Position numbers and translations under genes: made by a program
NCBI GenBank assembly: GCA_964454195.1
Contig: CAYVRD010000002.1
Location: 1-52,935, forward strand
Origin: an uncultured Clostridia bacterium
Lineage (GTDB): Bacteria; Bacillota; Desulfitisporia; Desulfitisporales; JAWSUQ01
Length of the DNA: 52,935 bases
Direction of reading: 5' to 3'
In this document: positions 3,413 to 37,352 of the stretch, piece after piece
How the letters are laid out: each line of letters starts with the position of its first letter
How positions within the stretch are numbered: position 1 is the stretch's first letter
The notes under the pieces: model-generated
Database searches by the model: none
Seen by the model: only the letters and a program-made list of their open reading frames with translations
What the model was told of the DNA's origin: nothing

Positions 3413-3444
3413 TATACCATCTCCTTTGAGCAAAAAGTAATATG

Positions 3445-4611: not shown

Positions 4612-4693
4612 TATTATCTTCCTTTGCTTTTTTTAATAACTATAGTAAAGCACATATTATCCATAAATGCAAAGTATATTATGATGATTTGAT

Positions 4694-17149: not shown

Positions 17150-17359
17150 AGTTCACCGCCTTAATACTGAACAATTTTAACCGGTCTAAAATTGTTTCTA
17201 TAGTATAAGACAACTGATAAGCAGTTTTGTATACACAAAAACAAAAAACTTTTTTCTATTTTATTCTTGCTAATTTGTTTAAGTTATTTAAAATCTCCAG
17301 TAACCGTAGGGATCGCTTTCAAAAACGCTCTCTGAGAAGAAGACCTGTCTAGTATGTTT

Positions 17360-17388
17360 AAAGGGAGTTGCCCACGGCAACTCCCTTT
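17360..17388 (-). terminator. Strong hairpin directly after the SNF2 helicase gene (candidate terminator, no clear U-tract)
   Basis: A 13-bp perfect stem forms between aaagggagttgcc (17360-17372) and ggcaactcccttt (17376-17388) with a 3-nt loop. It abuts or overlaps the stop codon at 17387-17389. Confidence 0.45.
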
Positions 17389-20300
17389 AAAGCTCTAGCA
17401 GCTGCCTTATCTCCTTTTCACTAAGAGAAGTAAGCAACGTCTCTTCCGGCTTGATTACCTGATCTATCAGCTCTCGCTTCTGTTGCTGAAGAGCATAGAT
17501 CTTTTCTTCAATAGTGCCCATTGAAATCATTCTTGTAACATGTACTATCCTACTTTGCCCGATTCGATGAGCTCGATCGGATGCCTGATCCTCAACAGCT
17601 GGATTCCACCATAGGTCAAAGTGAATTACCTTGTCTGCCCCAATTAGATTTAGGCCCGTTCCCCCAGCTTTTAGAGATACTAAAAATACTTGTCTTTCGC
17701 CCGAGTTAAAGGAAGCTGCCATTTCCAAGCGCTTAGCTGCTGGAGTTGCTCCATCTAGATAGAAATAGCTTTTATTGGACAATGTGAGCATCTTACTAAT
17801 TAGCTCCAGCATACCGGTAAACTGGGAAAATATCAGAATTCTGTGGCCGCTGGCCAAAGAGTCCTCGACTACTTCAGCTAATTGCTCTAATTTGCCGCTA
17901 CCCCCTTGATAATCTTCCAGAAACAGGCCAGGATGGCAGCATATCTGGCGCAGACGCATGATGCCTGTCAATATCTTCAGCTTTGCTTTTTCAAATCCCT
18001 GCTCCTCTAGCTCCTGTCGAACTTGTCCACGAAACTGATTCCAGTAGGCTAAGTAAATTTTTTCCTGATCCTCTGTTAGTGGCGACAGTAGCTTGTCCTC
18101 TATTTTATCAGGTAGCTCCTTGAGAACATCCTTTTTTAGGCGGCGCAATATAAAGGGGCTAATCCGTTTTGCCAACGTTTTAGCAGCTTTCTTGTCCCCA
18201 TCCTGTTGTATTGGCTTGCCGTATCGCTTGGCAAACTCTTGAAAGGAATGTAGGTAGCCCGGTAGTATAAAATCAAAAATAGACCATAGCTCGGCAAGGG
18301 AGTTTTCCACCGGTGTTCCTGTTAGGGCAAAGGTTTGGGAAGCTACTATAGACTTAGATACTATTGCTGTTTGGGAATGAGCGTTTTTAATGTACTGAGC
18401 CTCGTCTAGAATAAGTAGGCTAAAGACTTTGTCTTGATAAAGCTCCTCATCTCGACGAAGTAGTGCATAGGAGGTGATTAATACCTTTGCAGGCATGTCT
18501 GGCCATTGAGCCATAATGCTCTGGCGCTCAACCCGGGTTCCGGCCAATATTATACTGGTAAGATGGGGCGCAAATTTTGCCAATTCAGCCTGCCAGTTGT
18601 AAACAACTGAGGTAGGTGCGACCACCAAGGCAACTCCGCCTTTTTCCTGTAGCTCTGAATCTATCAAGGCAATGGCCTGTAATGTCTTACCCAACCCCAT
18701 ATCATCTGCCAAAATGCCACCAAAGCCACATTTGGCTAGGGTTTTCAGCCAGTGAAATCCCTGCTTTTGGTATTCCCTCATTAGCTTATCCATAGCTTCT
18801 GGAATAATTACTGGCTCTGCATTTGGATTTTTTACCCTATCTATGAGAGCTTGAAAAGCTGTTTCCTTAACAAAATTCGATCCCAAATTGCTTTGCAGTG
18901 CTTGATCAAGATTAAAAGCTCGGTATTTGGGTAGATGGAGTACTGGTTTCTTTAAATCCTTATCCTTAATTGCCAGCTCGTCCAGCACTGTGGCAAGCTC
19001 TTGTAGCTCCTGGTCTTCAGTTAACGAGAAAAACCCTCCGTTTTTCAAGCGATAGTACCGGCGTTTTTCCCGTAAAGCCTTAAATAATCCTGTCAGCTCC
19101 GCATGATCAATTCCCTCCCACTGCAGTCCTATTTCCAGCAGGTCGCCCTTTGGCGTCAAGCCTAGTCTTCCCTTTACCTTGGGACGTTGTACTGACAGAT
19201 TTTTTAGACGTTCACTGTAATAAATCTCTGCCTGTTCTTGTAGTTTGGGAAGCTGGAGAACGATAAAGCTGTATATATATTCTTCGTCTTTTAAGTGCAA
19301 ACCACCTGTCCCAACCTCAAAATTAGCCTGCTCTAGCTGATCCATTATAAAGCTCTCTTTTTGGCTGTCTCTAATTAGCAAAGAAGAAGAAAAGGACTCC
19401 TGCTGTTGGCTGTTTATTTGAGCCTTGCTAAAGGGGTCAATCTCCCTCTCGCCATAGCAAAACAGCACTCGAGCCAACAGCTTTTTTCCCTCTTCATCAA
19501 GGTAAATCTTAACCTTAAGCGGTTCTTGTATAAAGGCCTTAGCTACCTCTTCTGTCAGCTTAACCTTCCCAACCTGCCCTAATAGGGGATAGAGCTGCGT
19601 GGCAAATTCCTCCTGATACTGGGGTGGAATAATAATTGGATTCATGTGTGCTAGCCCTGCCAGCACTGATAGCAAGCCATGCTTTTGTTCACTGCTTATG
19701 GCATATATTTCAGATTTGTAAAATAGATAATTTTTTTCCGGATCTATGGCTATAACGTTTCCCTTAATATTTGTTTCCAGCTTAAGTCCATGTTCCTCCC
19801 TAGATAAATTCATTTTGATAGGAAAATCCTTTTTAATACTAGAAATTGGGTAGACTTTCCCATTTAACTCAAAATCAAAGCATCTGTTCTTTAAAATATC
19901 TAATAGTCTTTTCACCATAGAGTATGGAATAATAGCATTTTTACCATTAAACAATCTTTGGCGATTATCATACATATAGCCTGCCCGTTGTCGCAAGGAG
20001 CTGTTTAAGCTATTCAGCTCCAACAAAAAATCTATTAGCTGCTTGTCTTGCTCATCAAACCAATGCTCCTTTGTTGAATAGGTAAGCTTTTTGCCAAAGG
20101 TGAGAGCTCCACCGTTGTCCTGAATATCTAAAAATTCCTCCATATTCTTTACTACATACAATTGACTTAAGCCCATCTTCATTGACAGTCTATGCTCCCA
20201 GTACTTCTCCCAGCTGTGTTGTGCTATTGTTAAGGTGGGACGCAGCAATATTTTATTGGCATCTAATCCCATGTTTTTTTGTGTTTCTTTTGGTTGCTCC

Positions 20301-20761
20301 GCTAAACCCAGCATATTTTGTACGGCTATTAATTGGGCTTGCTTAAATTGTCTCATTTTTTCTACTTCTTCTTTCTTCTGCTTTTCTTCCGCAGCCTGTT
20401 TAGGTGCAGCATCCCTCTGGGCAGAGCTGATGGCAATGCCACTATTTATTTCCCTTTGCTCTTGGTAAATTGAAAGGAATACTGCCACAATATGCTTACA
20501 TATGTTATACATACTACTGTAGGCTGGGCAGGAGCAATAGGCTTCATAATAGCCTTCGTAAACATCATCGCTGTTTTCGTCATAAAAAATGATATCCACA
20601 TCATACATTTTAGTGCCCTTGACCCTGGCATTATAGATTTGCTCTTTCTTATCAAATGTCAGGTTTTTCACTAAGCCCCCCTTAAAATATTCCATCCCCC
20701 TAGAAAACACAACAGCTGTATCACATTGCTCCCTAATCCAATCTAGCGTCAATCTCTCCAA
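17387..20761 (-). CDS. SWIM zinc-finger / SNF2-family helicase (SNF2_N + helicase C)
   Basis: The 1124-aa protein has a SWIM motif CSCPAYSSMYNICKH (20492-20536). Its helicase motifs are LADDMGLGKT (motif I), LILDEAQYIKN (DEAQ box) and the C-terminal DLWWNPAVEDQASDRAHRIGQ. The start codon is TTG (20759-20761), preceded by GGGAG. Confidence 0.9.
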   Translation of the reverse strand: MERLTLDWIREQCDTAVVFSRGMEYFKGGLVKNLTFDKKEQIYNARVKGTKMYDVDIIFYDENSDDVYEGYYEAYCSCPAYSSMYNICKHIVAVFLSIYQEQREINSGIAISSAQRDAAPKQAAEEKQKKEEVEKMRQFKQAQLIAVQNMLGLAEQPKETQKNMGLDANKILLRPTLTIAQHSWEKYWEHRLSMKMGLSQLYVVKNMEEFLDIQDNGGALTFGKKLTYSTKEHWFDEQDKQLIDFLLELNSLNSSLRQRAGYMYDNRQRLFNGKNAIIPYSMVKRLLDILKNRCFDFELNGKVYPISSIKKDFPIKMNLSREEHGLKLETNIKGNVIAIDPEKNYLFYKSEIYAISSEQKHGLLSVLAGLAHMNPIIIPPQYQEEFATQLYPLLGQVGKVKLTEEVAKAFIQEPLKVKIYLDEEGKKLLARVLFCYGEREIDPFSKAQINSQQQESFSSSLLIRDSQKESFIMDQLEQANFEVGTGGLHLKDEEYIYSFIVLQLPKLQEQAEIYYSERLKNLSVQRPKVKGRLGLTPKGDLLEIGLQWEGIDHAELTGLFKALREKRRYYRLKNGGFFSLTEDQELQELATVLDELAIKDKDLKKPVLHLPKYRAFNLDQALQSNLGSNFVKETAFQALIDRVKNPNAEPVIIPEAMDKLMREYQKQGFHWLKTLAKCGFGGILADDMGLGKTLQAIALIDSELQEKGGVALVVAPTSVVYNWQAELAKFAPHLTSIILAGTRVERQSIMAQWPDMPAKVLITSYALLRRDEELYQDKVFSLLILDEAQYIKNAHSQTAIVSKSIVASQTFALTGTPVENSLAELWSIFDFILPGYLHSFQEFAKRYGKPIQQDGDKKAAKTLAKRISPFILRRLKKDVLKELPDKIEDKLLSPLTEDQEKIYLAYWNQFRGQVRQELEEQGFEKAKLKILTGIMRLRQICCHPGLFLEDYQGGSGKLEQLAEVVEDSLASGHRILIFSQFTGMLELISKMLTLSNKSYFYLDGATPAAKRLEMAASFNSGERQVFLVSLKAGGTGLNLIGADKVIHFDLWWNPAVEDQASDRAHRIGQSRIVHVTRMISMGTIEEKIYALQQQKRELIDQVIKPEETLLTSLSEKEIRQLLEL

Positions 20762-20818
20762 TGCTACTCACACTCCCATATGTATCCTAAGCTATGTTTT
20801 AAACAACAGACATGCTCG

Positions 20819-23800
20819 TTAAAATATAGTAATCTGTTGCTCATTTATTGTAAAATCCGAAAGCTCTAGTGTTTCCTCGTTCCCAGCTTTAAAGGAGACG
20901 TTTTCTTTATTTCTAAATCTATCTTCTATAACCTTAGCCACATAAATTTTATCAAATCTATTGTAGACGGCACTTCCTCCAATGCCAGAAAAGCACAGGA
21001 GCTGAATGTTGTATTTTTCGGCTATCTGGAACATGGGCTCTAATAGATGCTCTGCATTTGTTTTGGCAAAGGGGTTGTCCATAATTAAAATTTTCTTTTC
21101 TTCCTTATTATCAATATCCGATTCTCGTCTACGCATATATGACATTAGACTTGAGAGCAGAATAAACATGGACACAAATTTTTCTCCGCCAGAATTTTGG
21201 GTAAGGGCTTCTCGCCAGCTTTTCTTTACTAATCTGCTCTTCTCAATTTTCTTGATATCAACTCTTATTCTACTAACGTTGCCGATTAGCTTGCTTAAGA
21301 GCTCTGCACTGTTAATGTCATTGTCCAGGTAGCTATCGTAGTGCTCTGCAGAGCTGGCATAAAAGTTAACTCTTTCTTTAATGTACTCCTTTAATGCCTC
21401 TTCCTCTTTGTCTTCAGGTATACTGATCTCCAAAAGCTTTTGGGTCTTATCCAGATGTTTGATGCTTGATTTCTTGTCAATAGACTTAAGCTCCTGAAGA
21501 ACATTGTTGGCGTACCTTAAGACGTCGTTTAAAACCACCTCTTCTTCAGATTTAATGTATTTTAGATCTAATTCTAAGGCGTTTATTCTCCGGTCTACTA
21601 TTTCCAGAAGAGATTCTACATCGTTATGACTGGCTAGCTTTCTTTCCTTGTTCAAGTAGTGGTTTAGGCGCTCTTTAATAAATCGACTACTATCTCGGTA
21701 TTTCTCATAAATGGTGCGAATTACACTGGTAAGCTTGCCCTCCAGATTATAAATTTCTCTTTTAATCGCCTCATAAGCTTCTATGTAATCATTTACCCCT
21801 TTGATAGCAGCTGTTAGATCCTTAAAATCTAACGGAGCAATGTCTGAACTGCTAGGGCTAGAATAGCCCTTGAAGGAATCCAACTTTTGGACAAGAAAGT
21901 TAAGCTCTGTAATCTGACTTAGGTAGCCCTTGATAATATCTTCGTTTTGCCTTAAGTCCTCTTTAATTTTCTTTTTCCTAGCGATAAAGCTAGTATCTTT
22001 AATATTTTCCTTAGCTATTGGCTGGCTAAAGCCAAGCTCAATAATATCCTGCTGCTCCCGCTGTTTTTTAGTTGAGATGATATTTATAGCTTTATCTAGC
22101 TGATGAATTTGCTCTGTTAGCTGTTTTATCTGCTCCTCAAACTCTTGGATTTGACCCTTCAGCTCTTCCCAACGCATATCAGAAAAATTAACGGCTATAT
22201 ATTCTTCTTTAGCTATATTGCCTTCATTCGTCTTTCTTTTTAGCTTATCCTTGCCTTTGGCCAGGCTAGCACTTAGCCTTTTCTCTTCTTCCTTATCCCG
22301 CTTTATATTGCTATCTAGCCTTTGCTCACAAGCGGAGAGCTTAGCTTCGAGACTGCTTAAATCCTCCTGAATCAAGACTCCTGATTGGGTATTTTTGTAT
22401 AGCTCCAGCCTTTCCGTGCACCTAGAAATGCTCTGTCTAGTCTCGTAAATATTAATAGCCAGCCTATTTAGAAGTTCATGAGCTGTTGATTTTTCATTAG
22501 CTAATAGGTCTTCCTCTTTCTTTAGGTCTGCCATAATATTTTCTAGCTTATGATGCTCTTGGATATGCTTCTTATATTCTTGATGCTCCAGGATAAATCG
22601 GTTAAAGCTATCCCTTTTTTCCTCCTGGATTAGAAGTTCTTTTTCTAGCTCCTGAAGCCTTTTGTTGATAGCATCCTTTCGGGCCTCATTTTTATTTATT
22701 TCCTCTCGGTGTTGCTCCAATTGTGCCTCTAGCCCCTGGATATCCTGCTCTAGCTGGGCTATTTCTGTATTGATAGCAAGATCCTCATCCCCCTTATAAG
22801 GGTATTGGGCAATAGTCTGCGCATAGGCATTATTTCTGCTGATAGCATTTTTCAACTTACTAATGGTGGAAACATAATTCTCTATTTGCTGCCTTAATCC
22901 ATTTAATAGCTGAGTTCTTTCCTCTTCATCGATAAGCATGTAATTAAAGGCTACCAGGAAATCTTGGTTTTGAATAGTTAGCACATGGCTGTTCTTTGCC
23001 AAGGCTACAGCTTTATCTAGCTCACTTATATTTATGATAGGTATGGGAACAGAGGTAAACACATCTAGGCTCTCCTGCTTTAAAAGCATGATATCCTTAG
23101 GATTCAATAAAATGCCATAGGGAAAAAAGGGATTGTTATTAATTAAGCCTTCTTTTTCCTCTTTACTTCCTTTAAAGTTTTGTAGCCACTTAAGGGCATA
23201 TTGAAATTGAATACCCTTATTTTCAAAGCTTTTTAATACCTCTTTAGGCAGTTGAATCAGTCCTGTTTCATATCGGTGGACATCCTCTTCTAATTCCCTC
23301 AGGGTAGCTTCTTCTCTGTGCAGGGCATCCTGCAGCTTAATATTTTCTGTCTGTATAGCTTGAGAAAGCATAGACAGGTGAGTAGCTGGGCTAAGGGGGA
23401 GCGCTTTTATTCTCAATATTTCCATTATTTTTGCTGTTTCTTTGTTAAATTGGGCTAACTCATTATTCTTATTTGCCAAATCCAGCTTTCTTTCAATCAG
23501 ACTACTATTGGCACTGATAGCCTTCATTTCTAGCTCTAGCTTAGTCTCTATCAGAGAATTGAGCCCACTATTTAGCTCCTGCTGCAAATGGCTAATAGAG
23601 CTAAGACTACCCTCAATACTTACTCGGTAGTCATTTAGCTCCTTTTCATCATATTCATTTAATAACACATTTTTTAGCAGCATAAAGTCACTATGCTTTT
23701 TCTTGAACTGCACCTCTAGCTTTTCAAAGCTTTTGATTAGGCTACGCAGGGCCTCTTCTGCCCTAATAGTATCCTTTTGCAGCCGGTCATTAGCTTTAAG

Positions 23801-25153
23801 CTTTTGCTCCTTTTGCGCCACTTCCTCCTTAGCTTTTAGCTGCTGATTTAGTAGCTCCTCAAGATTTAGCTCTAGCTCCTGCAACTGAATTGTATAGAGG
23901 TTTTTTAAGGTAAATTTATAGTTGTTGATACTCTGGGCTATTTCCGAATCAGCTCTTTCGTAGTTAGCTATCCGCTCTCTTATTTCGGTGAGATTGCTCT
24001 CTATGGCATTGAGCTCTTCATATATCTCTGCACACTCCTGAATGTACTTTTCTTTTATAAGGCTTTGCTTTTGCTGAACCTTTGTAAGGTGCTCTTCCTT
24101 TAAATCCTCCAGCCTTTTTGTTTCCTTTTCCTCTTGAGCTTCCAGGCTGTAGTAGCCTAGGGAATGCTCTTCATAAGCTACAGTGATAAGCTCATTGTTT
24201 AGCTCTGTCCTAAGCTCTTCATGCCGGAGCTTTTCTGTAGTTCTTTTTACTAGCTCATCCTGACAGGATAGGGCTGTGCTGGAAAGCTGCTTGTACAGTG
24301 CCTTTCTGCTATCCTCTTTAACAATTCCCTGCCTTAAGAGCTGATTTGCTGGGAGCATGTCCCCCTGAAATTCCTTCAGTAGCTTTACCTCAAAAAAGGC
24401 TTCCTTGCTTCCCTTGTAGCTTTCAACATAATTTTTTAAGTTTTTTCTAATAGAATCAACCATATTTTTCTCGCCGTTAATTTTACTTTCAATTAAGGGC
24501 ACAATCACATTTTTTATTAGTGCCTCATCGGTTTTATGCTTGTCGTATAGGTTTGATAGTCCCGATTCATCGTTATTAATGCTTCGGATGATATCCTCCC
24601 ATTCCTTATAATCTATTCTGTAGGCTTTTAAGTCCTCATAATACTCTGCCTTTTTACTGTTGTCATTAAAGTTGTAGTATTTGAAATGGAGCTTGCCAGC
24701 TTTAAATTTCTTTATCCTGTCTTCACCTTCGGAGAAGCTTAGAATTTTTTTATCTTCTACAAATGGGGCATTTACAATGTCAAAGCTGTTAGGCTTAGAG
24801 TACTTATGTTGAAAGGCTAAAATTCTCAGTCTGTTTCGCTCGTCATCGGTGGCTTCTTTTTTTATAAGCATACCTACTAGCAGCTTTTCTTCACTGTCTA
24901 GAAGCACCTCATGCATTATATAGGTAGGGGTATTGCCTACAAAGTAATCATCGAATTTCCTGCCCTGCAGCTCCCTTTTATTTCTGATAAAGGGCTGGAG
25001 AAAAAACTGAATAAGCACTGTTTTCCCAATACCATTATCCATGGAAAAAAGAGTGTCCTTACCGTTGCCATAGTCAAATAGCTCATTGTAGATAGTTCTT
25101 TTGCCGTCATTGTAATTTAAATTAATTATTCTTGTTTTACACAGCTTAGGCAT
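20819..25153 (-). CDS. SMC-like coiled-coil ATPase (JetC/MksB-type architecture) with an atypical Walker B
   Basis: The N-terminal head carries SMDNGIGKT (Walker A, 25019-25042). About 1100 aa of heptad-rich coiled coil are interrupted by a non-coil hinge-like segment (...NNNPFFPYGILLNPKDIMLLKQESLDVFTSVPIPIINISELDK...). The C-terminal head carries the signature QNSGGEK and ILIMDN-PF (Walker B, 21074-21091). The track start at 25213 overlaps the upstream gene by 68 nt. An ATG at 25153 behind GAGGAGGAG gives MPKLCKTRIINLNY... and an 8-nt ATGCCTAA overlap, so I use 25153. Confidence 0.75.
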   Translation of the reverse strand: MPKLCKTRIINLNYNDGKRTIYNELFDYGNGKDTLFSMDNGIGKTVLIQFFLQPFIRNKRELQGRKFDDYFVGNTPTYIMHEVLLDSEEKLLVGMLIKKEATDDERNRLRILAFQHKYSKPNSFDIVNAPFVEDKKILSFSEGEDRIKKFKAGKLHFKYYNFNDNSKKAEYYEDLKAYRIDYKEWEDIIRSINNDESGLSNLYDKHKTDEALIKNVIVPLIESKINGEKNMVDSIRKNLKNYVESYKGSKEAFFEVKLLKEFQGDMLPANQLLRQGIVKEDSRKALYKQLSSTALSCQDELVKRTTEKLRHEELRTELNNELITVAYEEHSLGYYSLEAQEEKETKRLEDLKEEHLTKVQQKQSLIKEKYIQECAEIYEELNAIESNLTEIRERIANYERADSEIAQSINNYKFTLKNLYTIQLQELELNLEELLNQQLKAKEEVAQKEQKLKANDRLQKDTIRAEEALRSLIKSFEKLEVQFKKKHSDFMLLKNVLLNEYDEKELNDYRVSIEGSLSSISHLQQELNSGLNSLIETKLELEMKAISANSSLIERKLDLANKNNELAQFNKETAKIMEILRIKALPLSPATHLSMLSQAIQTENIKLQDALHREEATLRELEEDVHRYETGLIQLPKEVLKSFENKGIQFQYALKWLQNFKGSKEEKEGLINNNPFFPYGILLNPKDIMLLKQESLDVFTSVPIPIINISELDKAVALAKNSHVLTIQNQDFLVAFNYMLIDEEERTQLLNGLRQQIENYVSTISKLKNAISRNNAYAQTIAQYPYKGDEDLAINTEIAQLEQDIQGLEAQLEQHREEINKNEARKDAINKRLQELEKELLIQEEKRDSFNRFILEHQEYKKHIQEHHKLENIMADLKKEEDLLANEKSTAHELLNRLAINIYETRQSISRCTERLELYKNTQSGVLIQEDLSSLEAKLSACEQRLDSNIKRDKEEEKRLSASLAKGKDKLKRKTNEGNIAKEEYIAVNFSDMRWEELKGQIQEFEEQIKQLTEQIHQLDKAINIISTKKQREQQDIIELGFSQPIAKENIKDTSFIARKKKIKEDLRQNEDIIKGYLSQITELNFLVQKLDSFKGYSSPSSSDIAPLDFKDLTAAIKGVNDYIEAYEAIKREIYNLEGKLTSVIRTIYEKYRDSSRFIKERLNHYLNKERKLASHNDVESLLEIVDRRINALELDLKYIKSEEEVVLNDVLRYANNVLQELKSIDKKSSIKHLDKTQKLLEISIPEDKEEEALKEYIKERVNFYASSAEHYDSYLDNDINSAELLSKLIGNVSRIRVDIKKIEKSRLVKKSWREALTQNSGGEKFVSMFILLSSLMSYMRRRESDIDNKEEKKILIMDNPFAKTNAEHLLEPMFQIAEKYNIQLLCFSGIGGSAVYNRFDKIYVAKVIEDRFRNKENVSFKAGNEETLELSDFTINEQQITIF

Positions 25154-25868
25154 GGGACTCCTCCTCATTACTTTTTTCCCCAAGGATTCTGTTGATGTCC
25201 TCAAGCCTTTCATAGTCTAAAAAGTAATTGGCGGCTAGACGGTTAAACTTGGATGTAGGTATAATTACAGTTTCATCTTGAATATTAATGAGGCTCTCTT
25301 TTTTCAGAAAGCTCATCACCTGACTAATATACCATCTTCTAGTTTTGAAGACAGTGGCATCGTCTTCATTAGTTAAGGTAAACCAGTACTTGGCTATGTC
25401 AGTAATGACCAATCCTGTCTGTTCGTCTGCTGATTTATCCTCAGTACTTGAAAATAGCTCCAGTCTCTCTGTTATTTTTTCGTCTAGCTCACCAAGCTGA
25501 ATCAAATCCCTTATCTTTACATTACTCCCTTTGCCGCTGTAAAATTCCATGGTCAGCTGGAGCATGATGTAGATAGCTAGAAAGAGATCTAGGTTGCGCA
25601 TCTCTCCCCTAGGAAAGATTTCTTTTTTAAGCTCCCATCGTTTGTAGCCTAAAAAGTCATTGTCCACATCGGGAATTAGGTAGATGGTGTCATCGTACCT
25701 TTTGATGCTGACCCTGCTTTCTTCCTCCATGGCTTGCAGGATTTCCCTTACCTTGGCGTTAGTAAAGAACTGATACAGCTCCTTATCCTCCTTGGCAGTT
25801 AGCTCTCCATGGGCTAATAGGTAGTTATATATCCGCATAGCTCTTCTAATATCCTCTAATGTATACAT
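25146..25868 (-). CDS. Hypothetical 240-aa acidic protein, occupying the position of the KITE subunit (JetB/MksE) between the putative kleisin and the SMC ATPase
   Basis: This complete ORF is tightly coupled to both neighbours. Its size and position match JetB/MksE, but I cannot recognise a diagnostic motif by eye. Confidence 0.45.
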   Translation of the reverse strand: MYTLEDIRRAMRIYNYLLAHGELTAKEDKELYQFFTNAKVREILQAMEEESRVSIKRYDDTIYLIPDVDNDFLGYKRWELKKEIFPRGEMRNLDLFLAIYIMLQLTMEFYSGKGSNVKIRDLIQLGELDEKITERLELFSSTEDKSADEQTGLVITDIAKYWFTLTNEDDATVFKTRRWYISQVMSFLKKESLINIQDETVIIPTSKFNRLAANYFLDYERLEDINRILGEKSNEEESHA

Positions 25869-25876
25869 ATGGCTAT

Positions 25877-27472
25877 CTACTCCAATTTCATTATTATATT
25901 AGGGCAGCTTAATGTCTGGGCGGTGATAAATTCTTGTTCTAAGTCCCCTTGTCTTTTTTCAGCTATGGTAATTCTATCTTCATCCTGTGCCTTTACAAAG
26001 ACAAGAGACTTGAGGGCTAGAAATCTATACTTGTCATTTATTTCGTCAACCAGCAGCTTTCTTAGGTCAAACTCTATCTCATCGTTTTCGTAGGCCTTCT
26101 CTTGCTCTCTCATCATATCCTCTATATTAATGGTGCCTATGCGAAGAAACTCAATAAAAACCTCAGAAAGCTTTCGCACTGTTGGCACCAGCTTAGAATA
26201 GGTGTCTACATTACTGCGCTCATAATAATTAATCATTGCTTTTAGATTGGTGTTCCTATGATCTACTAGAAAGGCAAAGATGGAGCAGACAATATCTCTA
26301 TATTGCTCTTTGTTCCGTTGCCTCATGAGCAGCTCTAGATCTTGTCCTTCCTCGTCACTGATGAAAACCTCATCCCCATCATCTTCTCTATAATAGAGCT
26401 TTTGTTCAGTAAACATATAGTTGATGTTAAAGCTTTTTGGCAGACTAGCTCTAAACAGGGGGTTAAACAGCTTGTAGGCTGAGCCTAAGCTGGAGGCATT
26501 CTTTTCTATGGGCTTAAGCAGGTCTTCTTTAATGTTGATCCTTTTGTTGTTATAATAGTAGCTAGACTCTTCCAGGGCTCTCTTGTACTCCTCTTTAAAA
26601 TGGAAATGGCAGTTTATCAGCTCGCCTGCCTTAAAGGATATGGCGGTCAAAAGCTCCTTGATCTTACCTAGCTGCTTTAAGGATTCATAATTTTCCTTAG
26701 TAATTTCCCCTTCAGTTTTACTAAGCCTATCCTCCTCAATTATGATTACTTCTTTTAATTCATCAAATTTTTTATTTTGCTCCTTCAGTACCTCTATGTT
26801 TTTCAAGAAGTTGTCCTCAAAGGACTGTTGATCAATAGAAAAAATATTCTCCCTGGTCCGATAGATAAAATTATTTATCACATTAATTTGGGCAGTTATT
26901 AGGTTATTTAGATTTTCTACTGCTAATAGGCCTTGGGAAAAGTTCTTCTTCTTTAAGCTAAGCTCTAAAATCATTTGATTGATATCGATTTGGGTTTTTT
27001 CATCTACCTCTAAGGCGCCTAAAAGTAGTCTGTACCCCTCTTGGGTAAGCATAAAGGTGCTTTTGTTGTTGTCTAGTTTAGATGTCTTTTGCTGCAGCAG
27101 GTGGAAGTCAATGCTCTTTTTTTCTCCCGATACATAATCTATAGTTGTAAAAACAAAGGGTCTTCCATCGTTTCTAAGGATCTTATACACTATGAAATGG
27201 GTAATCTCATAGGCTTCCTGTTCTGTCAAGGATTTGTCAAAGTATTTATTGGCTAACTCCTCTAGCAGGGTTGTCATATTATTCAAGGTACATTCTTCAT
27301 CCTTTAGGGAACGGTCTAGCACGAAGCACATTAGGCTATAGACTAAGTTTATCAGCTCAAGGCTATTAAAATAGTCCTTGTAGGTGGTCAGCGTAGAGAC
27401 CTTGTTATCGACTAAAAAGGAATAGGATAGCTTTTCCATCCGCTTATGAAAGTTTTTTAAGAAATCATACAT
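25877..27472 (-). CDS. Hypothetical 531-aa largely helical protein, occupying the position of the kleisin-like subunit (JetA/MksF)
   Basis: This complete ORF starts 5 nt after the upstream stop, behind a GAGAGGAA RBS. Its size and position match JetA/MksF, but I recognise no motif by eye. Confidence 0.45.
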   Translation of the reverse strand: MYDFLKNFHKRMEKLSYSFLVDNKVSTLTTYKDYFNSLELINLVYSLMCFVLDRSLKDEECTLNNMTTLLEELANKYFDKSLTEQEAYEITHFIVYKILRNDGRPFVFTTIDYVSGEKKSIDFHLLQQKTSKLDNNKSTFMLTQEGYRLLLGALEVDEKTQIDINQMILELSLKKKNFSQGLLAVENLNNLITAQINVINNFIYRTRENIFSIDQQSFEDNFLKNIEVLKEQNKKFDELKEVIIIEEDRLSKTEGEITKENYESLKQLGKIKELLTAISFKAGELINCHFHFKEEYKRALEESSYYYNNKRINIKEDLLKPIEKNASSLGSAYKLFNPLFRASLPKSFNINYMFTEQKLYYREDDGDEVFISDEEGQDLELLMRQRNKEQYRDIVCSIFAFLVDHRNTNLKAMINYYERSNVDTYSKLVPTVRKLSEVFIEFLRIGTINIEDMMREQEKAYENDEIEFDLRKLLVDEINDKYRFLALKSLVFVKAQDEDRITIAEKRQGDLEQEFITAQTLSCPNIIMKLE

Positions 27473-27477
27473 AAAGC

Positions 27478-28491
27478 TTATTCCTCTCTAAGTAAGCCAT
27501 AATTTATAATCTCCTGGGGGATATAGCTCCCCTTTTGGAGTAGATGCGCAATTTTCTCACTATAAGTCAGCAGCTCCTGTAGGAAAATCCCTTTAGTGTT
27601 TTTATTTTGCTTGTCACTATATCTAGGTAGCTCTTTTCCTTCTTTTTGCTTCAGCATAGCAATGTAAGCATTTTTAAAAAGCTCTATGTTAAATTTTCTT
27701 GCATACCTATTCTTCAGCCTTTCGTAGATAGCAATGCCTTCATAATCTATGTCTCCCCAGTATAGTACCTGCGCTGGGTTAAGCAGATAATCCTCAACAG
27801 TATGCTCATAGTCCTCTAGCGACCGCTCGATATTCTTACCGCTACCGTAGATAATGGTATCAATAGGTTGTCCTAAAAATATGGTTTGCCCATTAATCAT
27901 TAGCTTTCTCAGGGTATACCAGGTGTCTTTATTTTCGATAATAAGCACCTTCTGCTTTCTCATTTTACTATTGGAAAAATAGACAAAAGGCTCTGGTGTA
28001 ATATAGATATTTAAATCTACCAAAGAAAGGCCCAAATTTTTTAGGATACTTTGTCCGCCACCATCCTTAAGGTATTTCTCTTGGCCCCATATTTCAAAGC
28101 TTCGCTCATTAATGGCCATAGGTACTATCAATTCGCTTTTATGATTGCGGAAGTAGTGGGCTAGCCTTCGGATATTTTCCTTATCTGCTTGGTATTTGAC
28201 CAGGTTGTTTAAGTAATATCCTCTACTAAAGCTGGAGGGAAAGCTATAGTTTATTTCATCTACTAAATAAGAAAGGTCTTGCACCTTGGGGTTTACCCGA
28301 TACTTGTTATACAGTGGCGGAAGCATCCCATTTGATTTGCTGGCTTTGACCTCCTGTAAGGCTCCATCAGCTACAAGTCTTTTAACTAGCTCCACCAGCT
28401 TAGGGTAGCTATCTATTTTAAAGTAGTCTTGTATTTCTGCTATGGTTAATATTTTCTTATTTAAGTCATAGATTGTTTTAATCTTAACCAT
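27478..28491 (-). CDS. JetD/MksG-like Toprim (DUF2220-type) protein with N-terminal wHTH-like region
   Basis: The 337-aa protein has KVLIIENKDTW (E186), YGSGKN, YWGDIDYEGIAIYERL (D247-x-D249) and a C-terminal YIPQEIIN. This is the E...DxD Toprim pattern and block order seen in the C-terminal domains of Wadjet JetD. Confidence 0.65.
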   Translation of the reverse strand: MVKIKTIYDLNKKILTIAEIQDYFKIDSYPKLVELVKRLVADGALQEVKASKSNGMLPPLYNKYRVNPKVQDLSYLVDEINYSFPSSFSRGYYLNNLVKYQADKENIRRLAHYFRNHKSELIVPMAINERSFEIWGQEKYLKDGGGQSILKNLGLSLVDLNIYITPEPFVYFSNSKMRKQKVLIIENKDTWYTLRKLMINGQTIFLGQPIDTIIYGSGKNIERSLEDYEHTVEDYLLNPAQVLYWGDIDYEGIAIYERLKNRYARKFNIELFKNAYIAMLKQKEGKELPRYSDKQNKNTKGIFLQELLTYSEKIAHLLQKGSYIPQEIINYGLLREE

Positions 28492-28504: not shown

Positions 28505-28531
28505 GTGACAAAGGGACGGGGCTATTGTCAC
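28505..28531. repeat. Left inverted repeat, itself a REP-like hairpin
   Basis: In GTGACAA-aggga cggggcta-TTGTCAC, 7-bp arms close a 13-nt loop. The repeat ends 1 nt before the transposase stop codon (28533-28535), and its other edge lies 13 nt upstream of the JetD-like ATG (28491). Confidence 0.8.
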
Positions 28532-28532
28532 G

Positions 28533-29309
28533 TTACACTCTTTGAATTATCCCCCTGCCAATTCCTGTTATTCTCTCAATCTGTCTAATTGATAATCCAT
28601 ATCTTTTCTTAAGGGTTTTTATGTATATATTTCTTTGGTTTATGTCTAACTTTTGTAGATCTATAGCTTGATCAAGCTTACAGTGCTCCTTGATTATTTT
28701 TCTAGCATCATCATCTGTTAATCTCCGCTTTTCAGGTATATCCATACATTCATCATCACTCCCAGTGTTTACGTACTCAACAAAGTACCTTACTGCTTGT
28801 ATTCTATCTTTACTAAAAATATCAAGGGCAAAGTCAATATCACTCTTTTTGCTGTTACTTATTTCAGAATAGTCATTGTAATTAGTCCATTTATAATCTG
28901 AAATTTTAGTTGCTATTCCAGCCTTTATAGGGTTTTGAAATATATAACGAAGTGCTGTAAGAAAGTATGCATCATCCTCTACAGGTTCGCTTTTATAGCG
29001 ATCTTGAAATAAGTACCCTACTCTGTCATATTTTTTGTTATACCATAAAACATAGCTACTGCATATCCTTCTCATTACAATTTCTAATGGTTCCTTACCT
29101 TCCATTAATAGTAAATGTAAATGATTACCCATTAGACAATAGGCATATATCTTATAGCCACTAATCTCCTTGTATTTTTGCAAGGTCTGAACAAACCTAG
29201 CGTAATCTTCCTTATCCTCAAAAAGAGATTGACGATTTATTCCTCTCATAATAATATGATATATTCCACTTTTACTTTTTATCCTTGCTGTTCTTGGCAA
29301 TACAATCAC
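28533..29309 (-). CDS. REP-associated tyrosine transposase-like (IS200/IS605 Y1 HUH family) protein with a C-terminal DnaA-C-like HTH
   Basis: The protein has the HUH motif GNHLHLLL and the catalytic Tyr context LFQDRYKSEPV. Its N-terminus PRTARIKSKSGIYHIIMRGINRQ is typical, and the C-terminal end reads LSIRQIERITGIGRGIIQRV. The track start is a GTG at 29309. A TTG at 29298-29300 behind GGGGTGA would give the typical (M)PRTARIK N-terminus. Confidence 0.85.
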   Translation of the reverse strand: MIVLPRTARIKSKSGIYHIIMRGINRQSLFEDKEDYARFVQTLQKYKEISGYKIYAYCLMGNHLHLLLMEGKEPLEIVMRRICSSYVLWYNKKYDRVGYLFQDRYKSEPVEDDAYFLTALRYIFQNPIKAGIATKISDYKWTNYNDYSEISNSKKSDIDFALDIFSKDRIQAVRYFVEYVNTGSDDECMDIPEKRRLTDDDARKIIKEHCKLDQAIDLQKLDINQRNIYIKTLKKRYGLSIRQIERITGIGRGIIQRV

Positions 29310-29320
29310 CCCTATGGTAA

Positions 29321-29348
29321 ACTATACCACAGTGATGGTTTATGTCAA
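29321..29348 (-). promoter_or_regulatory. Near-consensus sigma-A promoter driving the RAYT gene and possibly the downstream array
   Basis: The minus strand reads TTGACA (29343-29348), then 16 nt, then TGgTATAGT with the -10 hexamer at 29321-29326. The -35 hexamer is partly contributed by the right inverted repeat. Confidence 0.5.
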
Positions 29349-29368
29349 TAGCCCCGTCCCTTTGTCAC
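29346..29368. repeat. Right inverted repeat of the RAYT unit
   Basis: This is the exact reverse complement of 28505-28527. Confidence 0.8.
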
Positions 29369-29430: not shown

Positions 29431-29492
29431 TTAGTTATTATTAGTTCAAACAGCATATATGTTTTGGGCAAAGATGTTCAAAAGTAAAAAGC

Positions 29493-29541
29493 AACGACGC
29501 TTTGAAAAGTATTTATACTTTTTGGAGCGTCGTTTTTTTTT
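29493..29541 (+). terminator. Intrinsic terminator inside the operon leader (candidate attenuator)
   Basis: A 19-bp stem pairs 29493-29511 with 29516-29534 (16 Watson-Crick and 3 G-U pairs) around a 4-nt loop. A run of 9 T's at 29533-29541 begins with the last two stem positions. The structure lies 39 nt upstream of the ATG at 29581, and no upstream plus-strand gene exists for it to terminate. Confidence 0.7.
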
Positions 29542-29580
29542 ATACTTTCATTAAAAAACATTTTCAAAGGAGTGATAACC

Positions 29581-30960
29581 ATGAAAAACCCAGCAACTAT
29601 GGATCAAACAACGGGCTACAACAAGCTGACAAAGGAGGATGTAAAGCGCTTAATAGTCGAGCACCAAATTGAGACGATTCGCTTGGAATATGTAGATTTG
29701 AACGGTGTCAATAGAGGAAAGCTATTGCCTGCTGATATGATTGACGTAATCTTTGATGATGGCATTGCCTTTGCCGCAGCAGTAATGGCTATTTGCTTTG
29801 ACAACAATGTGGCCCAAGTCAAAGGGCTTACCGAGTACAATTACGATGATATGAAGGTTATCGCCGATCCGTCTACCTTCTTAATAATGCCTTATATAGA
29901 AAAGACTGCTCTATTGCTGGGAGATCTCTATTATCACAAAAAACCAATGAACCAGTCTCCCCGTTGGTTTTTGAAGAAAATGATAAAAGAGTATAACGAT
30001 TTAGGGTTAAATCCTATTGCTGCCAGTGAGCTGGAGTTTTTCCTATTTAAAAAGACGCCCCAGGGGGACTATCCTCCCTACACTAATCAGACGGGCAATG
30101 TCTATACCAGCAATATCCGCATCGACCCCCAGGGCTTTCTTTACAAGCTAACTAAGACCCTTAAGACCATGGATTTTCAAGTGCTCTATATGAACCACGA
30201 GTTTTATCCTGGGCAGTACGAGTACAATTGGAGTCATGGACCGGTACTGCGAAACGCTGATGAAACAAGTCTTTTTAAAGGCGTGTGCAAAGAAATAGCA
30301 GAGCAAAACGATCTTTTTGCCACCTTTATGGCTAGACCAAAAAACGAGAATGGCGGCAGCGGAGCCCATTACCACTTATCTCTTAATGATTTGTTCACTG
30401 GAGAAAATCTATTTTATGATAAAAACGACTCCCATCAAATGTCTCCTTTGATGTATAGCTTTGTGGCTGGAGTATTAAAGCATGCCAAAGCTTTAACTGC
30501 CTTTTTGGCACCAACAGTTAACTGCTACAAGCGTTTTTTACCTAACTCCTTTGCCCCATGTCATGTGGGCTGGGGTTATGACAACCGCACCACCTACATT
30601 AGAATTCCTGAGGATCGGGGCAAAGGTACCCGAGTTGAGGTGCGAGCCGGCAGCGCTGCCTCTAACCCCTATTTAGCTTTAGCAGGCATTTTAGCAGCAG
30701 GCTTAGATGGTATAAAAAATAATCTGACACCTCCGGATATAATCACCACTGACCTTTATAACGACGCTACTGTTCAAAAAGAAATCATTCCAAAAAGCTT
30801 GTTTAGAGCCTTACAGGAGCTGTCTAATGACGAATGGCTGTGTGAGTGCGCTGGGGAGGATTTGATTAATAACTTTGTGGAAATTAAGACTATTGAGGTA
30901 GATACATTTACCACTACTGTTACCGATTGGGAATGGAAGAATTATTCGTACCATATATAG
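29581..30960 (+). CDS. Glutamine synthetase-family gamma-glutamyl-amine ligase (GmaS/PuuA-like)
   Basis: The protein has a GS catalytic-domain layout (ELEFFLF, NHEFYPGQYEYN, GSGAHYHLSL, NCYKRF, DNRTTYIRIP). The track start is a GTG at 29572. AAAGGAG at 29566-29572 plus an 8-nt spacer favours the ATG at 29581. Confidence 0.8.
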   Translation: MKNPATMDQTTGYNKLTKEDVKRLIVEHQIETIRLEYVDLNGVNRGKLLPADMIDVIFDDGIAFAAAVMAICFDNNVAQVKGLTEYNYDDMKVIADPSTFLIMPYIEKTALLLGDLYYHKKPMNQSPRWFLKKMIKEYNDLGLNPIAASELEFFLFKKTPQGDYPPYTNQTGNVYTSNIRIDPQGFLYKLTKTLKTMDFQVLYMNHEFYPGQYEYNWSHGPVLRNADETSLFKGVCKEIAEQNDLFATFMARPKNENGGSGAHYHLSLNDLFTGENLFYDKNDSHQMSPLMYSFVAGVLKHAKALTAFLAPTVNCYKRFLPNSFAPCHVGWGYDNRTTYIRIPEDRGKGTRVEVRAGSAASNPYLALAGILAAGLDGIKNNLTPPDIITTDLYNDATVQKEIIPKSLFRALQELSNDEWLCECAGEDLINNFVEIKTIEVDTFTTTVTDWEWKNYSYHI

Positions 30961-30996
30961 TACCCCTTAATCGTATACTGGGAAGGAGATAAACAC

Positions 30997-31899
30997 ATGT
31001 GTGGGATAGCTGGAATAATCAATAAACAGGGTATGGAGATATCCACTAAGCTATTAGAAATGCTTTCTTTAATACAGCATCGGGGAATGGATGCCACTGG
31101 AATAGCTGTATATTATCAGAAGGATGATTCTTTGATCGATTTACGGGTGGCAGAAACAAAGAAAGATATGCATTCTACCCTGCTAAAGGTCTTAGGGCAG
31201 TATAGCTCGGTGCTGGAAGAAAAATCCTATGTAAAAAACCTTCTAGTTTCTTTTACTGAGGCTCGTCTAAAAATGGCAGAGGAGGATCTTCCCCAGCTCC
31301 ACGCAGCCATTAATCGGATCGATGGTCTCTATGTTCACTCCCTGGGCAGGGGAATTAAGGTCTACAAGGACGGGGGCACTACTAAAGATCTGCTGGCAGT
31401 CCACCAAATCGGTCAGTCCATAGCTACCCACGGTATGGGACACGTGCGCTTGGCCACTGAAAGCGCAGAGGACATCAATGCTGCTCATCCCTTTGTATCA
31501 CCTTTTTATCCCCAGCTGTCCATCGTCCACAATGGGCAGTTTACCAACTATTTTAATGTTAGAAGATATTTAGAAAGCAAAGGAGCCATCTTTAAGACCA
31601 TGAATGATTCTGAGGCAGCTAGTCACCTTATCGCTTATGCAATGGCCAACAACGGTGGCGACTTAGAAAGTGCCCTAAGCTTTGCTTTAAATGAGCTTGA
31701 CGGCATCTTCTGTATTATGGCCTCCACTGACAATCAGTTTGGCTTTGTTAAGGATAAGCTAGGCATCAAGCCTTTATTAGTTTTTGAAACAGAGGACATT
31801 ATCATGTTTGGCTCAGAGCAAATTGAGTTTACGGCCTTACACCCTGATGTGTTTGCCGAAGAAATGGAACCGGGGGAGATGCGGGTATGGAGTATATAA
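30997..31899 (+). CDS. Class-II (Ntn) glutamine amidotransferase domain protein (GlxA/MgsA-like)
   Basis: The N-terminal MCGIAGI carries the nucleophile Cys2. The protein is 300 aa and has a GGAAGGAG RBS. Confidence 0.85.
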   Translation: MCGIAGIINKQGMEISTKLLEMLSLIQHRGMDATGIAVYYQKDDSLIDLRVAETKKDMHSTLLKVLGQYSSVLEEKSYVKNLLVSFTEARLKMAEEDLPQLHAAINRIDGLYVHSLGRGIKVYKDGGTTKDLLAVHQIGQSIATHGMGHVRLATESAEDINAAHPFVSPFYPQLSIVHNGQFTNYFNVRRYLESKGAIFKTMNDSEAASHLIAYAMANNGGDLESALSFALNELDGIFCIMASTDNQFGFVKDKLGIKPLLVFETEDIIMFGSEQIEFTALHPDVFAEEMEPGEMRVWSI

Positions 31900-32612
31900 A
31901 TGCTAAAGCTATGGATACTAGAACACTAAACAAAGCTATAGCCCTCTCTTTAAAAGCCTCAGGTAGAGCAGTGGTAACAAACCCCCACTCTATGCACAAC
32001 ATTGCTGCAGGCTTAACAGATGCAGGTCAAATAATCATTCAGGGCAGTACCGGATTCTACACTGGAGGCTTTCTAGAAGGTCCTAGTATTTTAGTTGAAG
32101 GCAATGCCGGTTGGTATGCAGGAGACAACATGATGGATGGTCAACTAATAATCTCCAAAAACGCCGGCTGCAATGCGGGAACCTATCTTTGCGGCGGCAC
32201 TATCCTTATTCGGGGCAATGCCGGCAGCAGAACTGGTTATGCCATGAAAGGCGGCACTATCCTAGTCTGCGGTTCTGTAGGACGTTGGTCCGGTCAGATG
32301 ACCATGGGCGGGCAACTGGTGGTTTTAGGTGAGGTGGGCAAGCAAATAGGCGAATCCATGTATAAGGGTGTTATTTATGTCCGGGATCAGCAGGCTGCAG
32401 AAAAGCTGGGGGGAAATGTCTATCTTGATAGCATCACAGTGGAAGAGGTTAATCAGCTGCAGCAGCTTTTTGATAAGTACCAGCTGGAGGCTACTCCCAA
32501 GGAGTTTAAGGCAATCCGCCCCTGCCGAGAAGAGCGCCACAGCTATAGCCTGTTTACTCCCCAACTAAAGCCTCATTTGGCCAGAAAATTCAATGTGAGA
32601 GGAGATGCTTAA
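31887..32612 (+). CDS. GXGXG-repeat protein (glutamate synthase alpha-subunit C-terminal domain type; GlxC/MgsB-like)
   Basis: The protein has reiterated G-x-G beta-helix turns (GNAGWYAGDNMMDGQLIISKNAGCNAGTYLCGGTILIRGNAGSRTGYAMKGGTILVCG). It overlaps the upstream gene by 13 nt. Confidence 0.85.
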   Translation: MEYINAKAMDTRTLNKAIALSLKASGRAVVTNPHSMHNIAAGLTDAGQIIIQGSTGFYTGGFLEGPSILVEGNAGWYAGDNMMDGQLIISKNAGCNAGTYLCGGTILIRGNAGSRTGYAMKGGTILVCGSVGRWSGQMTMGGQLVVLGEVGKQIGESMYKGVIYVRDQQAAEKLGGNVYLDSITVEEVNQLQQLFDKYQLEATPKEFKAIRPCREERHSYSLFTPQLKPHLARKFNVRGDA

Positions 32613-32614
32613 TC

Positions 32615-33931
32615 ATGACCACAGCTAAGATATCAGAGCCAAAAGATGTGCAAAGGGGCGTTTGGAATCAAGAGACAGTGGCAGAAATCCAATACAAGGC
32701 CACCAACGGCAAGCACCGCATCCGAGGCTGCGGCTCGGTACGCTCCATGCCCACCTTCGACGATATTATGATTCTCCCCTCCCAGCTCAGCCGAATGTCC
32801 TTGGATACCTATAGAGAGCATTGCGATACCACTACTGTATTAGGTCAACGCTTTGCCTCAAAACCGTTGGAAATAGAAACCCCTATAATGATAGCTGGTA
32901 TGTCCTATGGAGCTTTGAGCAAGGAGGCTAAAATAGCCTTAGCCAAGGCTACAGCCTTAACAGGTACAGTAATTAGCAACGGTGAGGGAGGGCTATTGCC
33001 TGAAGAGCTGGAAAACTCCTACCGACAATCAATCCAAATTTTACCTAGCCGCTTTGGCTTAAATAAACGCAGCATAGAAGTGGCTGACATGCTGGAGTTT
33101 CTGGTGGGTATCGGCGCAAAACCCGGTCTGTCTGGCCACCTCATGGGTAGCAAAATTTCACCTGAAATAGCCCAGTTCAGGCAAATTCCTGTTGGTATTG
33201 ATTTGCATAGCCATCCTCGCCACGGTGATTGCTTTGGAGCAGATGACATGGTGGTAAAAGTGGAGCAAATTCGAGAATTGACCAACGGGGAGGTTCCAAT
33301 TTTCCTAAAAATTGCTGCGGGCAGAGTTAAGGAGGATGTGAAGATAGCCTTCAAGGTTGGAGTAGATGGCATCATCATTGATGGAGCTCAAGGGGGAACA
33401 GGGGCTGCTCCAGTAATGGCGACAGACCACCTGGGTATTCCCACCATGCCCGCCTTGGTACAGGCCGTGCGAACCTTAGAGGAAATGGGTATCAAAGATC
33501 AGTTTAGCATTATCATCTCTGGGGGCATCAAAGACGGTGCTGACCTGGCAAAGGCTCTAGCCATGGGAGCTGACGCTGTGGCCATTGGTACCGGTGCCAT
33601 GGTGGCCATGGGTTGCCGAGTCTGTCTAAGGTGTCATACAGGCATCTGCCCCTACGGCATTGGCACTCAAAAGCCAGAGCTACGAGAAAGACTAGATATA
33701 GACTTGGCTGCTGAGAGAGTAGCCAATTATATCAAAGCCATAACCTGCGAGGCTGTGCTCCTAGCAAAGGCTGCAGGAAAAACAAAGCTAAAAAACTTAG
33801 AACGGGAAGACTTGCGAGCTTTAACTATTGAAGCCTCCGCCATGACCGGCATTCCCTTAGTGGGAACAGATTTAGTATTTGGTCAACGTTACGGCTTTGG
33901 AGAAAGTCATAAAGGGGGCTGTTGTATATGA
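32615..33931 (+). CDS. FMN-binding glutamate synthase-family protein (GlxD/MgsC-like)
   Basis: The 438-aa protein has the blocks GMSYGALS, IIIDGAQGGTGAAP and ISGGIKDGADLAKALAMGADAV, which are typical of the GltB FMN domain. Confidence 0.85.
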   Translation: MTTAKISEPKDVQRGVWNQETVAEIQYKATNGKHRIRGCGSVRSMPTFDDIMILPSQLSRMSLDTYREHCDTTTVLGQRFASKPLEIETPIMIAGMSYGALSKEAKIALAKATALTGTVISNGEGGLLPEELENSYRQSIQILPSRFGLNKRSIEVADMLEFLVGIGAKPGLSGHLMGSKISPEIAQFRQIPVGIDLHSHPRHGDCFGADDMVVKVEQIRELTNGEVPIFLKIAAGRVKEDVKIAFKVGVDGIIIDGAQGGTGAAPVMATDHLGIPTMPALVQAVRTLEEMGIKDQFSIIISGGIKDGADLAKALAMGADAVAIGTGAMVAMGCRVCLRCHTGICPYGIGTQKPELRERLDIDLAAERVANYIKAITCEAVLLAKAAGKTKLKNLEREDLRALTIEASAMTGIPLVGTDLVFGQRYGFGESHKGGCCI

Positions 33932-35852: not shown

Positions 35853-35853
35853 G

Positions 35854-37322: not shown

Positions 37323-37352
37323 AAAAACTTAGTTACGAAAGGATGAAAATTT

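Follow-up and report, generated by a model that had tools for sequence, protein, structure and literature searches.

Background

The closest described relatives of the locus reported here are the Wadjet anti-plasmid systems, of which type I (known as JetABCD, MksBEFG or EptABCD, from Escherichia coli GF4-3, Pseudomonas aeruginosa and Corynebacterium glutamicum) and type II (from Neobacillus vireti) are built of the same parts, namely an SMC ATPase, a kleisin, a KITE subunit and a Toprim nuclease. Three Wadjet types are told apart by sequence and operon organisation (PMC10586767; bioRxiv 10.1101/2025.03.10.642339), and the type I gene order is A-B-C-D, as given by the names jetABCD (PMC12287153). 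Type II shares the extrusion-cleavage behaviour of type I, and this behaviour has been extended as a likelihood to type III, which is called largely uncharacterised and is represented by an operon of Bacillus thuringiensis (bioRxiv 10.1101/2025.03.10.642339). The same B. thuringiensis type III operon blocks plasmid transformation in Bacillus subtilis (bioRxiv 10.1101/2022.10.04.510915). In this study, we analysed a stretch of 52,935 nucleotides (nt) from an uncultured Clostridia bacterium (GenBank assembly GCA_964454195.1, contig CAYVRD010000002.1), hereafter the window, in which four adjacent minus-strand genes, jetDABC, are followed by a gene for a SWIM-SNF2 helicase. A preliminary description had proposed these five genes as a candidate undescribed defence variant, with a permuted nuclease gene and a helicase partner. 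Judged by sequence, jetDABC is instead a complete, ordinary type III Wadjet (JetD3-JetA3-JetB3-JetC3) anti-plasmid cassette, and thus an already known system.

Gene content and gene order

All four proteins matched the type III Wadjet models of PADLOC (PDLC00592/00561/00576/00583, for JetD3-JetA3-JetB3-JetC3). The leading gene, jetD (27478-28491, minus strand), encodes a Toprim nuclease effector of 337 amino acids (aa) that matches JetD3 with E=2.3e-95 over residues 5-335, followed by jetA (25877-27472, minus strand), whose 531-aa product, a presumed kleisin, matches JetA3 with E=1.7e-72 over residues 2-530. The 240-aa product of jetB (25146-25868, minus strand), a presumed KITE subunit, matches JetB3 with E=2.1e-45 over nearly its full length, and the 1444-aa SMC-like ATPase encoded by jetC (20819-25153, minus strand) matches JetC3 with E=2.1e-212 over residues 1-1444. 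JetA, JetB and JetC matched the type III models only, with no match to the type I or type II models of PADLOC, and JetD showed weak matches to JetD1 (E=1.7e-10) and JetD2 (E=5e-6) confined to its C-terminal domain. Earlier, the locus had been assigned to the Wadjet/Mks kind of SMC system, including a Toprim nuclease, and the products of 531, 240 and 1444 aa had been equated with JetA, JetB and JetC; this part of the earlier reading stands. The claim of an undescribed or novel variant falls, since all four proteins match a named subtype from end to end.

In architecture the window cassette is no different from the reference type III operon of B. thuringiensis. With the type III family it has in common the D-A-B-C order, genes of like size set close together and the overlap of jetB and jetC by 8 nt, as well as the Toprim E...DxD pattern, Walker A, the SGGE signature and a D-N Walker B. 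What is new against known type III systems are the sequences themselves, the best identity of JetD being 72%, and that to the JetD3 of Bacillus cereus-group plasmids just ~28%. The cassette also differs from its relatives by a RAYT-like unit directly upstream, and its JetD3 is shorter than the type I and type II models (337 aa vs about 380-430).

Whereas type I Wadjet has the order A-B-C-D, the nuclease gene leads in the window (D-A-B-C), an arrangement that had been interpreted as a permutation. For comparison, the window proteins were mapped onto 80 loci of other genomes encoding a JetD3 homologue; at least 505 JetD3 loci are present in the genome collection. The D-A-B-C order on a single strand was found in every locus holding all four genes (69/69), and two RefSeq-annotated plasmids, Clostridium perfringens pJFP838A and the B. 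cereus A01 megaplasmid, likewise carry D-A-B-C with a JetD-domain protein first. A permutation is therefore not borne out, and the loci survey together with the reviews on operon organisation identifies the nuclease-first order as the known layout of type III. As a separate observation, the type III operon of the B. cereus A01 megaplasmid has an open reading frame of 58 aa annotated between jetB and jetC (L087 15294-15470), which matches no Pfam family and has no equivalent in the window.

Median gene sizes in the homologous loci are 335/538/238/1465 aa (337/531/240/1444 aa in the window) and median junctions are 12, 12 and -8 nt. In the window, jetD and jetA are separated by 5 nt and jetA and jetB by 8 nt, jetB and jetC overlap by the 8 nt ATGCCTAA, which equals the family median, and the helicase gene begins 57 nt after jetC; the five minus-strand open reading frames and all of these spacings were found as previously claimed. 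The reading frame of jetC is open up to 25213, and its start was set at 25153 because a AGGAGGAG ribosome-binding site precedes the ATG at this position and because this ATG aligns with position 1 of the JetC3 family profile. There was no conserved fifth gene on either side of jetDABC in the surveyed loci, the largest cluster of flanking genes being common to 5 loci. Within the sample surveyed, type III Wadjet comes as four genes without further partners, always ordered D-A-B-C and with 8 nt shared by jetB and jetC.

Features of the four Jet proteins

JetC carries a Walker A motif DNGIGKT at residues 39-45 (GIGKT 41-45), the signature SGGE at residues 1321-1324 and a Walker B motif ILIMD whose Asp is D1359. 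Residues 301-600 and 801-1100 are almost devoid of Pro and Gly, and the middle of the protein, at about 631-740, is a Pro/Gly-containing segment with invariant residues, a candidate for the hinge-like segment of the preliminary description; the Walker A, C-head signature and Walker B ascribed earlier to the 1444-aa protein are all present. In searches of the JetC profile against the PDB, only coiled coils of SMC2, myosin and tropomyosin were matched.

The Walker B of type III JetC reads hhhhD-N-P-F (window residues 1355-1362), with N1360 in place of the usual Glu. This Asn was present in 63/63 JetC homologues and in both plasmid copies, and is evidently a trait of the JetC3 family, no defect of the window locus. 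The type I SMC ATPase carries the Glu that the window JetC3 lacks (E1022), and its E1022Q change kills the ATPase (bioRxiv 10.1101/2022.10.04.510915), both ATP hydrolysis and cleavage being lost. A full-text search of the papers available found no mention of Asn in the JetC3 Walker B. By manual alignment, the JetC position of the D-loop Asp likewise seems to be occupied by Asn, both in the window sequence and in consensus sequences.

JetD matches Pfam JetD_C with E=6e-15. Among 81 homologues, the Toprim residues E186 and D249 never vary and at least 90% have D247, so that the acidic pattern E186, D247-x-D249 noted in the preliminary description is confirmed across the family. An AlphaFold2 model built from the alignment of these homologues reached a predicted local distance difference test score (pLDDT) of 91.3. 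Its best PDB match was a Methanosarcina mazei topoisomerase VI chain (9o8p_A, E=5e-4, 363 columns), yet with a global TM-score of 0.27 and a root-mean-square deviation of 20.6, followed by type IIA topoisomerase cores and then by MarR/HxlR winged helices; no solved JetD was among the best 50 PDB matches of the model. The topoisomerase VI match fits the winged-helix plus Toprim design expected of JetD only modestly, because of the low global TM-score.

For JetA, the gene of which is second in 69/69 loci, there was no Pfam match and no PDB sequence match. JetB matches DUF6063 (E=4e-44), its JetB3 homologues give weak winged-helix matches only (PadR in 8/33), and its single-sequence AlphaFold2 model, with a pLDDT of 48.5, was of too low confidence to be compared with known folds. 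When 33 JetA3 and 33 JetB3 homologues were scanned against Pfam at relaxed thresholds, no MukF, MukE, DUF3375 or DUF4194 match appeared. The window JetA3, JetB3 and JetC3 have no match to Pfam families of the MukE/MukF type or to solved Wadjet structures, and from sequence the A, B and C subunits of type III can no longer be recognised as counterparts of those of types I and II. As a side observation, 20/33 JetB3 (DUF6063) homologues (e.g. L014-L076) weakly match the CARD death-fold family PF00619, with a best E=3.6e-5; the window JetB has no such match.

The SWIM-SNF2 helicase beside jetC

The gene next to jetC (17387-20761, minus strand, TTG start) encodes a 1124-aa helicase with the Pfam domains SWIM (7e-7), SNF2_assoc (PF08455, 2.7e-90), SNF2-rel_dom (2.2e-67) and Helicase_C (3.1e-25), and with intact helicase motifs, GLGKT at residue 689 and DEAQ at 786. 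It aligns over its full length (residues 21-1123) with NF053675, annotated as 'pilus expression-regulating Snf2 family helicase', at 643 bits, below the NCBIfam cutoff of 1100 bits, and is at most 41% identical to any database protein. The combination of SWIM, SNF2_assoc and SNF2 is probably also the architecture of B. subtilis YwqA. Little is known of YwqA itself, which is listed among the Swi2/Snf2 translocases reported to interact with RNA polymerase (PMC7385302). The helicase has the domain set of the YwqA-type or NF053675 helicases of Bacillota, and its homologues stand alone in varying contexts.

The helicase had been put forward as a linked partner of the SMC module, and the distribution of its homologues does not agree with this. 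Of the loci with 3 kb or more of sequence downstream of jetC, none had an SNF2 homologue there (0/52), and none was found in the flanking sequence examined around the 12 closest cassettes, whose proteins are 57-80% identical to those of the window. The closest helicase homologues (39-41% identity) all lie in non-Wadjet contexts (7/7), among metabolic and regulatory genes, and these contexts are not syntenic. The SWIM-SNF2 helicase is, in all likelihood, an unrelated chromosomal neighbour of jetDABC, and we place it outside the system; it may share the jetDABC transcript by read-through without being a component.

Against the defence models of PADLOC, the helicase matched DpdE (1e-138), ZorD (1e-109) and DrmD (4e-41), and its likeness to these proteins of the Dpd, Zorya and DISARM systems is confined to the generic helicase core, at residues about 560-1120. 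Its NCBIfam scores are 235 bits against a cutoff of 1500 for ZorD, 100 against 950 for DrmD and 63 against 500 for DpdE. Pfam scans of the window genes found no partner domains of DISARM, Zorya or Dpd (DrmABC, ZorABC, Dpd cluster), the PADLOC scan having covered three flanking genes only. Membership of the helicase in any of these systems was rejected, given scores far below the cutoffs and the absence of partner-gene domains in the Pfam scans. The helicase adjoining jetC in the B. cereus A01 plasmid was also considered as an SNF2 counterpart and was rejected as unrelated, being of the ResIII/PF18766 type (BLASTP E=0.78).

The 57-nt spacer between jetC and the helicase gene is no more prone to fold than shuffled sequence (z = +0.9). 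A stem-loop of 16 bp at 17357-17391 (minus strand), terminator-like without a U tract, overlaps the stop codon of the helicase gene (fold -28.8 kcal/mol, z = -4.3). Both the lack of a hairpin in the spacer and the strong hairpin after the helicase gene are as first described.

Upstream RAYT-like unit and putative promoters

A RAYT/IS200-like Y1 transposase unit occupies 28505-29368 (minus strand) and ends 13 nt upstream of jetD, which confirms that a transposase-like unit abuts the cassette. Its gene (28533-29309, minus strand, 258 aa, GC content 0.32) matches Pfam Y1_Tnp with E=9e-14 and scores 72.9 bits against NCBIfam REP_Tyr_transpos, under the cutoff of 80 bits. The unit is bounded by inverted repeats of 26 nt (28505-28530 and 29343-29368) with 96% complementarity, perfect over 23 nt, and the 23-mer occurs at these two sites only within the 53-kb window.

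In the close relatives L001, L004-L007 and L009, jetD is preceded at a distance of 25-40 nt by TATAAT-like boxes. In the window this space is filled by the right repeat of the RAYT-like unit, and a GGAG lies directly against the jetD ATG. The best sigma-70-like promoter match of its strand in a consensus scan (29348-29321, minus strand; TTGACA-16-TATAGT with TG, 11/12) is located at the inner edge of the left repeat, a second promoter-like site is present within the unit, and no terminator-like hairpin was found between the RAYT stop codon and jetD. The site at 29321-29348 is a candidate promoter for the RAYT gene and, by read-through, for jetDABC. Since the unit occupies the presumed place of the jetD promoter, expression of jetDABC probably depends on promoters of the RAYT-like unit, that is, on this near-consensus site or on the promoter-like site inside the unit.

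Between the RAYT-like unit and the divergent glutamine synthetase gene, an imperfect palindrome with 28-nt arms was observed at 29485-29542. It resembles a terminator on either strand and has no Rfam match; the likely ATG of the glutamine synthetase gene (29581) follows about 40 nt further downstream.

Genomic surroundings and origin of the cassette

The block had been called AT-richer than its neighbours and typical of a defence island, and neither claim is supported. The jet genes have a GC content of 0.376-0.408, or 0.415-0.481 at third codon positions, within the range of the window, the other 26 genes of which have a GC content of 0.32-0.49, and their codon usage cannot be told from that of the other genes; base composition was therefore dismissed as a sign of an island. 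Pfam domains in the surroundings are those of housekeeping functions, including a tyrosyl-tRNA synthetase, biotin synthase, an S-layer protein, a two-component system, a peroxidase-family (catalase-peroxidase-like) protein, an ECF sigma/anti-sigma pair, a glutamine synthetase/glutamate synthase operon and an ABC transporter. PADLOC, run on three flanking genes (RAYT-like, sigma and anti-sigma), matched none of them, and Rfam and tRNA scans of the window gave no match.

The Jet proteins are 57-80% identical to those in cassettes of Clostridiaceae metagenome-assembled genomes. For the adjoining glutamine synthetase, a highly conserved protein, the best identity is 74% (Desulfoscipio), and for the helicase 41%. 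Because the Jet identities contrast with those of these neighbours, transfer of the cassette alone is suggested, and the four-gene cassette probably arrived horizontally beside a resident helicase gene. An empty site was sought through synteny and none was found, the upstream regions differing in Desulfoscipio and in a metagenome contig, with no close relative in the databases. Apart from this, 29581-37748 is syntenic with Desulfoscipio gibsoniae and the metagenome contig (L088, L089; best protein identity 74%), in a string of genes for glutamine synthetase, GATase, GXGXG, glutamate synthase, Fer2_4, pyridine-nucleotide oxidoreductase, SO_alpha_A3, DAO and a RidA-like protein. The synteny and this level of identity point to a Clostridia/Desulfotomaculia-like, deep-branching lineage of Bacillota that lacks close sequenced relatives.

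Discussion

By homology with the characterised type I and type II systems, with which the window system presumably has the extrusion-cleavage mechanism in common, the JetA kleisin would close a dimer of the JetC SMC protein, and this complex, with JetB KITE subunits bound, would load on DNA and extrude loops driven by ATP. On a small circle that has been wholly extruded, the two motor units of the dimeric complex would meet and the complex would stall, and the stalled complex would then recruit or activate the JetD Toprim nuclease, putatively leading to cutting of the plasmid. Chromosomes and linear DNA would escape cleavage.

We put at about 90% the probability that the locus is a horizontally acquired type III Wadjet cassette, with the SWIM-SNF2 helicase a mere neighbour and expression probably by way of the RAYT-unit promoters. 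Several points weigh against it. The folds of JetA as a kleisin and JetB as a KITE subunit are presumed, sequence searches giving no confirmation of them; PDB sequence and profile searches with all four subunits gave no match beyond coiled-coil noise; and we know of no biochemical or structural characterisation of type III complexes. The ATPase chemistry of JetC3 may also differ from that of type I, because D-N replaces the canonical D-E of Walker B in every homologue examined. In addition, the 57-nt spacer between jetC and the helicase gene has no terminator, SNF2_assoc helicases are encoded within 10 kb upstream of jetD in 3/80 other loci (L033, L053 and L063), and the RAYT-like unit stands where relatives have -10-like boxes, so that jetDABC could be poorly expressed.

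The spacer and the upstream helicases both bear on a five-gene system, in which the SWIM-SNF2 helicase would assist a Wadjet variant as an accessory protein, share the jetDABC transcript and, for example, remodel target DNA or translocate along it. Such a role would fit the same-strand spacer without a hairpin and the position of the only strong hairpin after the helicase gene, as well as the use of SNF2 helicases by other defence systems, to which the DpdE, ZorD and DrmD similarity points, yet that similarity is of the generic core alone. In L033 the helicase gene (2626-5823) is 509 bp from jetD; in L053 (879-4136) and L063 (471-3758) it is about 6 kb away, parted from jetD by tRNA synthetase, transporter and other genes, and in all three its position and orientation are unlike those in the window. 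With no SNF2 homologue downstream of jetC in the surveyed loci or in the sequence examined around the closest cassettes, with the nearest helicase relatives all away from Wadjet, and with relatives at 57-80% identity for the cassette against 41% for the helicase, we consider a five-gene system very unlikely. Three upstream helicases in 80 loci are somewhat above the 0.2-0.7 expected from a rough estimate without matched controls, which makes them a weak lead. That a YwqA-like helicase is loosely linked to type III Wadjet, either as a co-transcribed modulator or because its neighbourhood is a favoured landing site of the cassette, seems just as improbable.

Somewhat less improbable, though still unlikely, is a cassette intact in sequence but silenced or decaying, its native jetD promoter having been severed by the RAYT-like unit 13 nt upstream. 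The replacement of the relatives' TATAAT-like boxes by the right repeat would be the trace of such an event; against it, the four reading frames are of full length with their invariant residues intact, and the near-consensus promoter at the inner left edge of the unit, the second site inside it and the lack of a terminator-like hairpin before jetD all allow for transcription into the cassette. A chromosome-organising condensin of the MksBEF/MukBEF type, as opposed to a defence system, would share the SMC-kleisin-KITE core and would suit the housekeeping surroundings. It would hardly be led by a gene for a JetD Toprim nuclease with intact catalytic residues, and the model matches solely to type III Wadjet, together with a patchy distribution and close relatives in distant lineages, make this the least probable of the alternatives, to which we give scarcely any credence. 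The horizontally acquired four-gene type III cassette is thus preferred over all of these.

Conclusions

The locus adds a further example of a defence system that would be recognised automatically by PADLOC, and probably by DefenseFinder, and from its presence the host is predicted to be resistant to being transformed with small circular plasmids. What is of wider use in the analysis concerns the type III Wadjet family and not this locus, namely its fixed layout, its divergent A, B and C subunits and the Walker B Asn of JetC3, which may deserve notice in work on the mechanism of type III Wadjet.

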